DNA of 64,000 nucleotides from Alphaproteobacteria bacterium (GCA_023898705.1 CP060235.1:235701-299700), one strand, 5' to 3'. Positions 10,494-15,907 are shown, numbered from the stretch's first letter. Notes: generated from the sequence alone by a model not told the origin. A program made the numbers and translations.

Positions 10494-11240
10494 ATGTTTT
10501 GGTGTGTGATGAGTATGAATGATAATTCGTTTTTAATTAATGTATTTTATGAATTTATATATGAAGCTCTAAAATTTAAAGAAATGATTTTATTCAATAA
10601 AACTTTGTTGAATGCTAGAGAAATCCAAGATGTTTTAACAAAGATGATATTCTATAAAAAAGAACTTGCCTTGCAAGAAGGTAGTTTAATTGAAGCAGCA
10701 TACTTAGAACTCTCCTATATTATGACTGTTTTAGCAGATGAGCTATTTATAAATTTGGACTGGGAACATCATGATGAATGGAAAAGTTATAATATGGAAA
10801 CGAAGATTTTTAATACTCATATAGGTGGTGTGAAATTATTTAATAATATAGATAGATTTTTAATATCAAATAGTTCATACAGGATCTGTATAGGATCAGC
10901 GTATTTACTGTGTCTTGGGTTAGGATTTAGAGGGCAATACAGGGGAGTTGATGATCATGGCAAGATTGCAGAATATAAAGTGAAGCTTTTTGAAATGATT
11001 TATCATAAACGTCCTAGTTTGGAGTACGGTAATTTTGATTTGTTTCCTGAAGTGCTAAATCATACAATTACGCGAGTAGAATCCAAAAGATTAAGTAGTT
11101 ACAAAATCTGGGGCATTATACTGGGGTTTGTGTCGATTACATACGTTTGTATGAGTTATTTTATTTGGCATGAAGGTGTCAAACCAATTACCCACATAGT
11201 ACATATGATTGAAAGAGAAATACAAAATGCTACAAAATGA
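10494..11240 (+). CDS. tssL: Type VI secretion membrane protein TssL (DotU/IcmH family)
   Basis: 248 aa. The DotU-like cytoplasmic domain carries ELSYIMTVLADELF and LLCLGLGFRGQYRG motifs. A single C-terminal TM follows (IWGIILGFVSITYVCMSYFIW). It lies immediately upstream of tssM and overlaps it. Confidence 0.75.
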   Translation: MFWCVMSMNDNSFLINVFYEFIYEALKFKEMILFNKTLLNAREIQDVLTKMIFYKKELALQEGSLIEAAYLELSYIMTVLADELFINLDWEHHDEWKSYNMETKIFNTHIGGVKLFNNIDRFLISNSSYRICIGSAYLLCLGLGFRGQYRGVDDHGKIAEYKVKLFEMIYHKRPSLEYGNFDLFPEVLNHTITRVESKRLSSYKIWGIILGFVSITYVCMSYFIWHEGVKPITHIVHMIEREIQNATK

Positions 11241-14200
11241 TTTGTTTTTGACATTCTTAATTGGAATAGTCTCAGCTGCTGCTTTTTTACTACTAAGTAA
11301 AGTATATGGATTGTTACCACACATAGTAGAATTTATAAAGAAGATAATTTTGTTTTTATCTAATAAAGTAACATTTTTATTTGGCAATTTAAATAAAGTT
11401 ATGAATAAAGATTTAAATAAATCGTTTGAAGAAAATATGCATTTTTTATATTCTCATTTTCAAACGGACGATTTTAAATATAAATTGCCTTTTATACTAT
11501 TTTTGGGTATAGAAAAATCTGGTAAGACAGAATTAATCAACAGTTTAAAACTAGATACTTTAGTCAGTGATAAAGATGATAAAAATAAATTGTGTAGCTG
11601 GTACTTTTTTACTGAAGCAGTTTTGTTAGAAGTGAATAGTGCAATATTTTCTGACAAAACCATGGATTTATCTGGTACTAATTATGAGTGGTATAAATTG
11701 CTTGATTTATTTAGTTACCACAGACCTGAACGACCAATAGATTCAATAGTTTTAACAATATCTATTGCACAATTATACGAGGAAAATGAAAATTTAAGTG
11801 AAATAGCAGAACATTACTACGTTAAATTAGTACAAATACAAAAGAGGTTTGGCGTTAATGTTCCAATTTATGTAGCGTTTACTTACAGTGATTATATACC
11901 TGGTTTTGCAGATTTTACTAAAGTTTTATCTTTTGAGGTTCAATCGAAAATTTTTGGTTGGTCAAATCCTCATATGTCATCAACCATTGATAGTGATTCG
12001 ATTATTAATGATGCATTTGAGGGTATAGTTAATAGAATTTGGGCTATACAACATGAAATTATGGTGAACGAAGATTTATCTGAAGCTGGAGTTTTTTCTT
12101 TCCCAATTGAGTTTAATAAATTAAAACGCAAGATAGTAGATCTACTATTTTATATTTTTAGATATAGTGAAATTAATGATAATTTTGTGTTCAGAGGATT
12201 TTATTTCACAGGTTCTGCTACAAATAATTTATACAGCAACTACGAGTTTAAGGAAATTTTGCGTAGTGTTGAGTTTGGTCAACTGACAAAACATGCACAA
12301 ATTTCTGAAAGTAATTTAATTTGCTTCTTTAATGACTTATTTGTAAAAAAGATTTTAAAGGAAAAAGGCCTTACCATACCATTATCATCAAATATATTTA
12401 ATAATTCCAGGAAAGTTCGTTTGATACAATATTTGGTTCTCGTGGTCATGTGCGGTGGCGTAATTAATTTGGGTTATCACTACTTAACTATTAAGAATGT
12501 CTCTTCATCGATGACAGCTGAATTATCTAAAATTAGGGTAGCTGTCTACAACGCAAAGCTTTTGTATGATGGCGTATATGATGAATTGGACCATAAAATA
12601 TTTGAAACACAAGCCTTAGCATTGATAAACGCAATCAAGAATATAAAACCTAATTCTCAACTACTTTATTACTCTCTTCCTCCTTCTTGGTTTTCTGGAG
12701 CGCGTTACGATGTGAAATTATTATTGGCTCATGCGTATGATTTCGTTATATTTAAGTTTATAAAAAATAAGATCAAATCTGATGTTGATGTGTTGTTAAC
12801 TTCAAATGTAGGTGAATGCAGAACAGATAATTTTGTCAGTGTTGTTAATTCTCAAAAATTTTGTCAATTAAGGCATTACATAGAAGAAATTACTAAGTTA
12901 GAACAGGTACAATTGCAATTGAATAGAGTCTCGTACCTATATAATATTTATGATTTGAATTTGATTACAGAAAAATTATTTAATATGTCAATTACTGATT
13001 TGTTGTTGCAGAATAAACATGTATTCCAAGATATTATGAAATTATCTGATGTTCATGTTCAAAGCTTAGATATACATAAGACGCAAGTGATTCGAAAAGT
13101 TGAAGATTTATTTGCCCAATTTGTGAATCACGCTCTTGTGTATGACAATATCATTCCATACATATCATATATAGAGAAAGCCTTACTATTATTAGAAAAA
13201 GGAGAATATCAAAATGTGGAAGTGTTATCAGGATACATAAATCAATTAGCTACTTTTGTGCATAGTAATGAAATTAATTGGTTTTTTAATGATCCACATT
13301 CTTTAGGTGAAAAATTGAATGAACTGTTGTATAGAGTGCAAGACAGCTATATTTTGGGAACAAATATGGCTAGATATATGAAACAGGAAATTGAGAAGAA
13401 AGTTCATTATTTAAGACAAAAATTGATTACTCATAGTTTGCCTATTTTGGGAGTGATATTTGCCAAGACAGGCTCAGGATCAATCATTTTTTCGTCTTCA
13501 TTTAATGAGTTTCAGGGGATAATTAACTTCTTATACAGTAAGGATTTTATGAAAGATCTAGGATACAGCGAATCGGATAAATTAAGCTCCGAATTGTTAA
13601 AGTGGGATGTTACAAAATTGGCTAATGCGATGAATATTATAAAGTCATTTAATCAATTTAATGATGATATGGTACTGTATAAAGATCAAAAAACAAAGAA
13701 GATGCTTACTAATATAGCCTCAATTAGTGTGGTAAAACAGGTTACATCACTGGTGATCGATAGCCAGACTGATTTAACAGATTTAGTCTCAGAAGAGCAA
13801 GTCTTATTGGATGTATCAACCAATTTTTATAATGCAACATTAAATTTAATAAATATTTTGAACTTTTTGAAAGTTGCTAATTATAATTTTTTCACAGAAT
13901 TAAAGGATGTAATATTAAAGCAAATTATGTCCTATTTATCCAAATTGGACCTTATTTTGAACGAAAGACAATTATACGATATTGCTCATTCAGCTTTTTT
14001 TATTGGTAAAAGTAACAATATAGATAAGGAAGGGCTTAAAATTTACATCAACAGGCAAAGAGAGCAAATATTTTATTTGGTTGGCATTGCTAAGCCTTTT
14101 ATTGAGTTTTTGAATAAAATTGAACATATGGATAAAAGTATGACCAACAAAACTTATATTAAGTGGAAAAAGATAGTGTCTAACACTAAAAAATATGAAG

Positions 14201-15000: not shown

Positions 15001-15073
15001 GAATTGAGTATAGGGTAACTTATAACTTAACTATCTTAAAAAATGTATAGTGGAATTGAAGGAGTGTGTGAGT

Positions 15074-15907
15074 ATGTACCAAATGAGTGACGCCTATAAA
15101 GTGATTGACAATCCGATAGATGATATTAACTATACTAACGCTTTTTTACAGTTAGAAACTATTATGAATTCTCCTAATGACACATTACCCAAGGGAATTT
15201 GGAGTACTTCCAAAGTGCAAGATTATCAAAGTGCTGAACAAGATTGTTTAGAAATTTTATCCACGCAAAAGAAAGATATACAAATTGCAGTTTGGTTAGT
15301 ACAAATAGAATTTTGGTTGAAGAAAGACATAGTTCAAGCTATCAAAATTTTAGACTACGTGTTTGAGAATTATTATGACTCAAATGAGTTGGCATTTATT
15401 AAAAAATCTTTTATTAATTTGAATAAATTTCTGAATATCACTCTGCCAAAGAGTATTATTGTCTCAGGTAATCAAAAAGATGGATATACTTTTTTGGCTG
15501 AACAAAATAGAGTTACTTCAATTGATGCAAATGTTAAAAGTGATCAGGATTTGTGGATTAACTTGCTACATACTTTATTGTTAAAAGTTCAAGCCAAAAT
15601 TGGTGAAAATTTATCTTGTATTGCAATACTTGAAAAGTACAAGTTATTACATTCTGTTAATGAGAAAAGTGATTATGATGATATGGTTGAAAACAGTAAC
15701 ATACAATCTTCACAGTTGGTTAATATTAAATCTCGGCATGAAGCGTACTTAATTATTAATGAAGTGATGAAATATTTGCAAAAATATGATCAGCATAGTG
15801 CTACTCCATATTTGTTGAAAAAAGCTTGCGAATGGGAGAATAAATCATTTGTAGATATTCTCAATGAATTTAATGATCCCATAATAATGAAAAAGATATT
15901 TTCTTAA
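15074..15907 (+). CDS. tssA: Type VI secretion protein TssA (ImpA family)
   Basis: ImpA_N-like N-terminus (DINYTNAFLQLE...DYQSAEQDCLEILSTQKKDIQIAVWLVQ) and a C-terminal SRHEAYLIINEVMKYLQKYDQHSATPYLLKKACEW motif resembling the EPHSP-type ImpA C-terminus. An AAGGAG SD lies 9 nt before the ATG at 15074. Confidence 0.65.
   Translation: MYQMSDAYKVIDNPIDDINYTNAFLQLETIMNSPNDTLPKGIWSTSKVQDYQSAEQDCLEILSTQKKDIQIAVWLVQIEFWLKKDIVQAIKILDYVFENYYDSNELAFIKKSFINLNKFLNITLPKSIIVSGNQKDGYTFLAEQNRVTSIDANVKSDQDLWINLLHTLLLKVQAKIGENLSCIAILEKYKLLHSVNEKSDYDDMVENSNIQSSQLVNIKSRHEAYLIINEVMKYLQKYDQHSATPYLLKKACEWENKSFVDILNEFNDPIIMKKIFS

Follow-up and report, generated by a model that had tools for sequence, protein, structure and literature searches.

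A tssL-tssM-tssA gene trio of a type VI secretion system beside bamA in a strongly reduced Holosporales-like genome

The tssL-tssM-tssA locus and a tssE-like gene

The window analysed here is a stretch of 64,000 nucleotides from the genome of an Alphaproteobacteria bacterium (GCA_023898705.1, CP060235.1:235701-299700). It contains three consecutive open reading frames (ORFs) on the plus strand, which code for type VI secretion system (T6SS) components, namely TssL, TssM and TssA, and are located between bamA and an inverted skp-fabZ pair, and a fourth ORF further downstream probably codes for TssE. The position of the trio had been given in a preliminary description of this DNA and was confirmed, with the flanking genes identified by their Pfam matches. 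The four genes are:

10494..11240, plus strand: tssL, 248 amino acids (aa); short member of the DotU family that has no OmpA-like extension; anchors the T6SS membrane complex in the inner membrane
11209..15000, plus strand: tssM, ORF of 1263 aa (1257 aa in the NCBI model); IcmF family
15050..15907, plus strand: tssA, 285 aa; short form with an ImpA_N core and a C-terminal oligomerisation-type domain
20075..20452, plus strand: tssE-like gene, 125 aa; gp25-like baseplate wedge; single gene flanked by gpsA and the atp operon; corresponds to H6845_01130

In canonical T6SS, TssL and TssM form the inner-membrane-anchored, envelope-spanning membrane complex, TssA caps this complex and coordinates the docking of the baseplate as well as sheath and tube polymerisation, and TssE is the gp25-like baseplate wedge which seats the sheath. 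All four ORFs of the window are uninterrupted, and their lengths match those of their orthologues. When the ORFs were searched with profile hidden Markov models, the matches to DotU, IcmF-related_N and ImpA_N were above the Pfam cutoffs, while that to GPW_gp25 was below.

TssL was recognised by Pfam DotU (PF09850) with an E-value of 1.7e-21 (77.2 bits, cutoff 27), and a hydropathy scan revealed one transmembrane (TM) segment, located C-terminally at aa 205-223, which bears out the earlier prediction of a DotU/TssL-like protein with a single C-terminal TM segment. A sequence search of the PDB matched the protein to the TssL structure of Vibrio cholerae (4v3i, E 4.5e-9), and its identity to the orthologues of the Cytomitobacter clade is 48-54%, with alignments starting around position 10521. 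The gene is placed directly upstream of tssM and overlaps its start.

The product of tssM matched Pfam IcmF-related_N (PF14331) with an E-value of 2.8e-41 (142 bits, cutoff 25) and contains the Walker A motif GIEKSGKT at aa 100-107, as expected from its previous assignment as a 1263-aa IcmF/TssM-like protein with this motif. It consists of a TM segment (aa 12-30), a cytoplasmic Walker A nucleoside triphosphatase (NTPase) domain, another TM segment (aa 403-421) and a periplasmic region of ~840 aa; the simple hydropathy scan gave no clear picture of a second N-terminal TM segment. The true start is likely at 11227, equivalent to that of the NCBI model. The protein is a 100% match to H6845_01085, which is encoded on a 558,489-bp contig of an uncultured alphaproteobacterial metagenome-assembled genome (MAG). 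The next best full-length matches reached 35-40% and come from Candidatus Cytomitobacter primus and C. indipagum, which are Holosporales endosymbionts of diplonemids, and from two MAG chromosomes of ~620 kb.

For TssA, the match to Pfam ImpA_N was just over the cutoff (E 5.7e-7, 30.1 bits, cutoff 26.9). A profile of the TssA family matched both the N-terminal region of known TssA structures (PDB 6hs5, E 4.4e-55) and their C-terminal domain (6h8f/6hs6, E 4.4e-15), whereas the window sequence by itself matched these entries weakly (0.01 and 0.3-0.7). The ImpA_N-type N-terminus noted before was thereby recovered, and the C-terminal motif, which had been given as HS-x-PYLL, actually reads HSATPYLL, so that two residues instead of one separate HS from PYLL. 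Orthologue alignments begin at 15074, and the ATG at this position is probably the true start. In most relatives the middle region of the protein is longer by ~90 aa, and its shortening is common to the window and the Cytomitobacter clade.

The tssE-like ORF is 125 aa long compared to ~160 aa in relatives and contains YEPRL, which fits the conserved (F/Y)EPRL motif. A comparison by hhalign with the TssE family from related loci resulted in a probability of 83.5%, and a reciprocal exhaustive search of 1.84e9 representative proteins with a two-sequence profile retrieved 12 matches; ten of these proteins were scanned, and nine matched TssE (TIGR03357), six of them over the cutoff. In MAG OZ247501, a 41%-identical TssE orthologue adjoins gpsA-fdx-HAD and atpB, and gpsA-fdx-HAD together with the atp operon flank the gene in this MAG and in the window, one inversion apart. 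The ORF at 20075-20452 is thus probably TssE, and the proposal of a gp25-like TssE gene 4 kb from the trio holds up with respect to the motif, the hhalign comparison and the reciprocal search, although the scores of the ORF are below the curated cutoffs.

The ORFs scanned in the window, which include every ORF of at least 200 aa, contained no other T6SS genes and no dot/icm or virB genes. This agrees with the earlier statement that tssB/C, hcp, vgrG, tssF/G/K, tssJ and clpV are absent from the window. Within positions 10200-16200, promoter-like sites were fewer than in shuffled sequences, and a terminator scan of the same region detected none between bamA and tssL and none after tssA. The G+C content of the window is ~32-33%, and the tssLMA trio is its most AT-rich stretch (29-30%).

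System type, descent and rearrangement of the locus

Scanning the GTDB species representatives with the TssM alignment yielded 80 loci, most of which contained homologues of all three window proteins in the order tssL-tssM-tssA. Clustering of the flanking ORFs showed that Nitrospinota, Desulfobacterota and other MAGs embed these genes in arrays of the type tssJ-like-K-L-M-A-B-C-hcp-E-F-G, and that Holosporales mostly contain a stand-alone tssK-tssL-tssM-tssA module. In locus L022, TssK, TssL, TssM, TssA, VipA, VipB, Hcp, gp25/TssE, TssF and TssG were all identified by Pfam in one row. These arrays bear on the question of whether the IcmF/DotU pair may instead belong to a Dot/Icm type IVB system, as both families occur in either kind of system and TssL showed a weak match of 26.8 bits to the type IVB model IcmH_DotU_IVB (NF038228). 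Because the orthologous L-M-A genes lie within complete T6SS clusters that also code for VipA, VipB, Hcp, TssF, TssG and TssK and the match to the IVB model is under its cutoff of 50 bits and weaker than the T6SS-type matches, we assign the trio to a T6SS, in agreement with the preliminary description. A Dot/Icm assignment is further contradicted by the presence of TssA next to the pair and of TssE nearby, and no dot/icm genes were among the scanned ORFs of the window; we regard it as extremely unlikely.

Upstream of tssK, L022 contains a gene (6809-7318) for a small lipoprotein that has a lipobox and an NQNxPVA motif, as typically found in TssJ; it has no Pfam match in this locus. The same TssJ-like lipoprotein family is present in ~25 other loci of non-Holosporales relatives (e.g., L028 7108-7587 and L040 7027-7500), whereas most Holosporales loci lack it upstream of tssK. 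Two loci of Paracaedibacteraceae-type MAGs (L016, 9722-14305; L017, 9686-14284) code for TssM proteins of ~1530 aa with long low-complexity C-terminal tails, and a tblastn search downstream of them detected no separate tssA.

T6SS genes of related endosymbionts have been described previously. A "modified" T6SS has been reported as ancestral for Cytomitobacter and Nesciobacter (George et al., bioRxiv 10.1101/719211), with tssABCEFGIKLM, tssI/vgrG and PAAR recorded in Table S3 of that study; Hcp and TssJ are apparently lacking in the Cytomitobacter-type relatives, and ClpV in some of them (bioRxiv 10.1101/719211). The suggestion that the system of the window is possibly streamlined agrees with these relatives. 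In the Holosporales families, the T6SS genes form conserved modules at a minimum of four sites, and [tssK-tssL-tssM-tssA] is one of these modules (PMC8163844). A 2025 review describes the T6SS as conserved in nearly every sequenced Holosporales genome and as the likeliest host-interaction device, whereas Holospora has lost it altogether (PMC11909080). The earlier remark that T6SS are rare in reduced intracellular alphaproteobacteria therefore fits the Rickettsiaceae, but not the Holosporales.

For TssM as well as for TssL and TssA, the closest sequences are the orthologues from the Cytomitobacter clade. When 58 full-length TssM sequences were placed in a neighbour-joining tree, the window protein was sister to the Cytomitobacter clade, inside a clade consisting entirely of alphaproteobacterial MAGs whose named members are mostly Holosporales, and the sequences from Acidobacteriota, Desulfobacterota, Nitrospinota and Bacteroidota were outside that clade. 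This is a distance tree of very divergent sequences with soft deep branches, and the local placement of the window TssM agrees with the identity ranks. The sequence comparison shows that the window TssM descended vertically within an alphaproteobacterial, largely Holosporales clade, and a foreign donor, as implied before, is not in accordance with this phylogeny. The housekeeping genes are related to those of the Cytomitobacter clade as well (pyrG 60%, xth 59-62%, rnhA 59-66% and bamA 42-45% identity), the order rnd-dnaQ-xth with pyrG alongside is common to the window and its relatives, and an alphaproteobacterial two-piece transfer-messenger RNA is present in the window. From the TssM matches, the housekeeping neighbours and the transfer-messenger RNA, we infer that the organism is an undescribed, strongly reduced Holosporales relative of the diplonemid endosymbionts.

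The flanks of the trio consist of the two halves of a split envelope operon and two further genes:

6645-7856, plus strand: rseP (Peptidase_M50, 6.8e-43); upstream half of the split envelope operon
7853-10375, plus strand: bamA (POTRA; TIGR03303 BamA, 9.3e-63); upstream half of the split envelope operon
15964-16422, minus strand: rnhA (RNase_H, 8.3e-35)
16419-16745, minus strand: yraN/UPF0102 (UPF0102, 2.3e-9)
16816-17313, minus strand: fabZ (FabA, 6.4e-19); displaced downstream half of the envelope operon
17300-17965, minus strand: skp (OmpH, 2.8e-14); displaced downstream half of the envelope operon

The window order is thus xth (minus), rseP and bamA (plus), tssLMA (plus), rnhA and yraN (minus), fabZ and skp (minus). 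In C. primus, yraN and rnhA (plus) are followed by fabZ, skp, bamA and rseP (minus) and then by tssL, tssM and tssA (plus). The MAGs OZ247489 and OZ247501 contain pyrG and then rnd, dnaQ, xth, fabZ, skp, bamA and rseP (all minus) ahead of the plus-strand trio, with rnhA-yraN a few kb downstream. Accordingly, rseP-bamA-skp-fabZ is intact in three of the four close relatives (L001, L003 and L004), with tssLMA abutting it and divergent from rseP, while the trio of C. indipagum follows the spc ribosomal operon; counting the window, tssLMA is beside bamA in four of five genomes. Compared to the three relatives, the window contains the same blocks with rseP-bamA inverted and skp-fabZ relocated.

The trio had been described as wedged into the bamA/skp locus, and a recent horizontal insertion of a T6SS fragment would explain why bamA and skp do not follow each other as usual and why the trio slightly exceeds its flanks in AT content. 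This is contradicted by C. primus and the two related MAG chromosomes, where the same trio adjoins the intact rseP-bamA-skp-fabZ block, and by the placement of TssM nested within Holosporales relatives, with all three proteins closest to the Cytomitobacter clade. The flanking housekeeping genes pyrG, xth and rnhA show the same relationships, and the trio junctions contain no tRNA genes, integrase or mobile-element genes; a repeat search at the rearrangement boundaries retrieved short AT-rich chance matches only. A horizontal insertion is therefore hardly credible. Because the relatives keep tssLMA beside intact rseP-bamA-skp-fabZ, the position of the trio between bamA and skp is shown by the comparison of gene orders to result from local shuffling of an ancestral neighbourhood.

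With the identities of the genes, their orthology, the vertical descent and the rearrangement established by these comparisons, we consider it very likely that tssLMA and tssE represent a chromosomal T6SS which was vertically inherited by Holosporales endosymbionts. The system would be encoded in small scattered modules, as in other Holosporales, and the ancestral module would have been tssK-tssL-tssM-tssA; in the Cytomitobacter-like lineage, tssLMA would have come beside rseP-bamA-skp-fabZ, and in this genome local rearrangements would have flipped rseP-bamA and moved skp-fabZ, leaving the trio between them. TssL would be tail-anchored in the inner membrane and span the envelope together with TssM through the Walker A domain and long periplasmic arm of the latter. 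TssA, with its ImpA_N and ring-forming C-terminal domains, would dock on TssL-TssM and direct baseplate recruitment and the growth of tube and sheath, and TssE would serve as the baseplate wedge of the same system and seat the sheath. By analogy to its relatives, we infer that the T6SS may be complete and active in this organism and may target host structures or rival bacteria.

Divergence of TssM and the state of the system

Only the N-terminal part of TssM was covered by the family models: TIGR03348 aligned with aa 67-443 (model positions 84-471, E 3.6e-44), and the periplasmic region had no match in Pfam (including PF06761 ImcF-related and PF06744 IcmF_C), in NCBIfam or in a PDB sequence search. 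AlphaFold2 models of the periplasmic region (866 aa) and of its C-terminal 327 aa reached confidence values (predicted local distance difference test) of 82 and 86 and consist of a long helical part ending in a beta domain; the underlying alignments were shallow (13 rows), and a second search with a 37-sequence alignment gave nearly the same 20 proteins. Foldseek searches against the PDB retrieved no match at E <= 1e-3 for the 866-aa model and none at this threshold for the 327-aa model, whose best matches were C2-type beta-sandwiches (E ~0.05). When the full-length proteins of the window clade were compared with canonical TssM by hhalign, only the N-terminal domain aligned (probability 100%), whereas the sub-alignments of the periplasmic regions matched each other with 95% probability (E 3.8e-8), and the best-aligned stretch carries the IcmF_C-type motifs kFPFN and GxWxxxRL. 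We do not infer a different fold from the Foldseek result because this profile-profile comparison ties the region to canonical TssM; it points to a remote homologue under the family thresholds. As the periplasmic comparison succeeds where Pfam, PDB and Foldseek searches fail, the window TssM, judged from its sequence, is full-length yet very divergent and belongs to a subfamily shared with complete T6SS clusters of several phyla.

In the alignment of the 37 clade sequences, the window TssM agrees with the others at all 22 invariant columns and at 32 of the 34 near-invariant ones, which argues for continued selection. Almost all of the aligned relatives (35 of 36, Cytomitobacter included) end in a proline-rich motif, (W/L)PxFPxxAPxL, and the sole other aligned TssM without it (L034) seems to be truncated C-terminally. 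From the window TssM the motif has been lost, and no shifted copy was found downstream of the deletion. One possible reason for the deletion is that the outer-envelope end of the complex is under less constraint.

Several points weigh against the reading as an inherited T6SS. The curated NCBIfam cutoffs were reached neither by TssL (TIGR03349, E 6e-19, 68.7 of 89.95 bits), nor by TssM (equivalog TIGR03348, 151.1 of 388.15 bits), nor by TssA (TIGR03363, E 2.3e-17, 63.7 of 160.85 bits), nor by the TssE-like ORF (TIGR03357, E 1.8e-7, 30.9 of 53.2 bits), which also scored below the GPW_gp25 cutoff (E 3.1e-5, 24.1 of 27.2 bits). The window covers 64 kb of a genome of ~558 kb, and the completeness of the T6SS, which has 13 core components, rests on the relatives. 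Moreover, tssK is not adjacent to tssL, TssA and TssE are shortened, and the in-frame deletion of ~14 aa in tssM (14940-15000) removes the conserved C-terminal motif. All of this would also fit relaxed selection.

Some of these features would also be expected if the genes were decaying leftovers of an ancestral Holosporales T6SS in a shrinking genome, with no working apparatus. No other full-length TssM in the alignment has lost the motif, the length of TssA is ~90 aa below that of most relatives and TssE has 125 instead of ~160 aa, tssK no longer occupies its usual position upstream of tssL, no part of the window is more AT-rich than the trio (29-30% G+C), and Holospora has lost its T6SS altogether (PMC11909080). 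Such a relic is nevertheless unlikely: the four ORFs are uninterrupted and of orthologue-like length, a gene of 3.8 kb would hardly stay open by chance at 30% G+C, and TssM retains the Walker A motif and every other invariant residue. The shortened TssA and TssE are common to the genomes of the Cytomitobacter clade and should thus represent old, stable states.

A further possibility is that the Cytomitobacter-like lineage, and this genome above all, runs a T6SS-derived machine with an altered interface to the outer envelope. It is suggested by the unrecognised periplasmic arm of TssM, the reported lack of TssJ and Hcp in the relatives, the deleted motif and the proximity to bamA in four of five genomes, and we consider it quite improbable. 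If true, the complex would be anchored or gated non-canonically at the outer membrane, possibly with the BAM machinery, or would no longer cross the outer membrane.

An inherited T6SS in the window would add one more undescribed, highly reduced Holosporales-like symbiont (~0.56 Mb) that retains T6SS genes for the membrane complex, cap and baseplate, and would reinforce the published view of the T6SS as the key host-interaction device of the Holosporales. The scattered and "modified" T6SS of Holosporales endosymbionts has already been published; new here are the poorly modelled TssM subfamily and the loss of its C-terminal motif. Acidobacteriota, Desulfobacterota, Nitrospinota and Kapaibacteria-type MAGs also contain the subfamily, in complete T6SS clusters, and since its periplasmic half is not recognised by Pfam, NCBIfam or structure libraries, automated T6SS calls can under-annotate it. 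The motif is either dispensable or lost in this genome, which thus provides a natural variant for probing the role of (W/L)PxFPxxAPxL. Neither of the two points alters the picture of how T6SS work.

Further features of the window and comparison with known systems

The skp and fabZ genes are directly adjacent in the window (16816-17965, minus strand), lacking an intervening lpxD as well as an lpxA behind fabZ, and the same applies to the loci of the Cytomitobacter clade, which hints that the genes for lipid A synthesis are elsewhere or lost. In the ribosomal region, tuf is missing between fusA and rpsJ (37758-40425), and the ORFs of rpsJ (154 aa) and rplB (403 aa, 42018-43229) have N-termini far longer than usual, possibly because the ORF caller took the first start codon. 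Several ankyrin-repeat ORFs are located within or behind the S10-spc operon:

45063-45572, 45596-45733, 50195-50974 and 51028-52002, minus strand: ankyrin-repeat ORFs within the S10-spc operon, antisense to it
56933-57415, 57385-57822 and 57848-58801, plus strand: three ankyrin-repeat ORFs after rplQ (L17)

One ankyrin gene and an ankyrin-repeat fragment are placed between rplP (L16) and a 56-aa L29-like ORF, which is followed by rpsQ (S17). Two more genes are found between rpsE (S5) and rplO (L15), the usual place of rpmD (L30), where no plus-strand ORF of at least 35 aa is left. The ORFs at 56933-57415 and 57385-57822 appear to be parts of a single gene that a frameshift has interrupted. An N-terminal hydrophobic leader ending in a lipobox-like (S/N)(N/D)L(S/N)C is common to five of the six ankyrin ORFs, and three of them have the basic tail S-K-x-K-R-(R/G)-C at their C-terminus. 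These proteins are candidates for exported, host-directed proteins.

The closest known counterpart of the window genes is the T6SS of C. primus and C. indipagum, which has orthologous TssL, TssM and TssA proteins (35-54%) of the same order and lengths, including the short TssA, in equally tiny and AT-rich genomes, and with a TssM of which Pfam recognises only the N-terminal domain. The trio adjoins rseP-bamA-skp-fabZ in C. primus as in the window. The window differs from Cytomitobacter in that rseP-bamA is co-oriented with the trio, skp-fabZ is on its far side, and TssM is without the C-terminal WPxFPxxAP motif; moreover, a full T6SS complement (tssABCEFGIKLM, vgrG and PAAR) has been reported for Cytomitobacter, whereas the window genome is known from 64 kb. 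The K-L-M-A module of other Holosporales (Bodocaedibacter, Paracaedibacteraceae and Caedimonadaceae; PMC8163844) likewise consists of scattered units with the same TssM subfamily. It stands alone among housekeeping genes in the Holosporales loci L007, L034, L050 and L068 and is present as K-L-M in the Paracaedibacteraceae locus L017, whereas tssK is detached in the window and the Cytomitobacter clade. Unlike the Cytomitobacter-type relatives, larger Holosporales genomes are reported to contain tssJ-like and hcp genes.

Compared to canonical T6SS-i as in the TssJLM complex of enteroaggregative Escherichia coli, the window system shares the fold family of TssL, the cytoplasmic NTPase domain of TssM and IcmF_C-like C-terminal motifs, and it shares the N- and C-terminal TssA domains at family level with the short TssA of Burkholderia cenocepacia (PDB 6hs5/6hs6). 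It differs from the canonical system by the strongly divergent periplasmic region of TssM, the shortened middle region of TssA and by having no tssJ nearby. The Dot/Icm systems of Legionella and Coxiella also contain an adjacent gene pair of the DotU and IcmF-N families (IcmF-DotU/IcmH), but the pair of the window is accompanied by TssA and TssE, partners which Dot/Icm systems lack, does not reach the cutoff of the IVB-type DotU model and has its orthologues in T6SS clusters.

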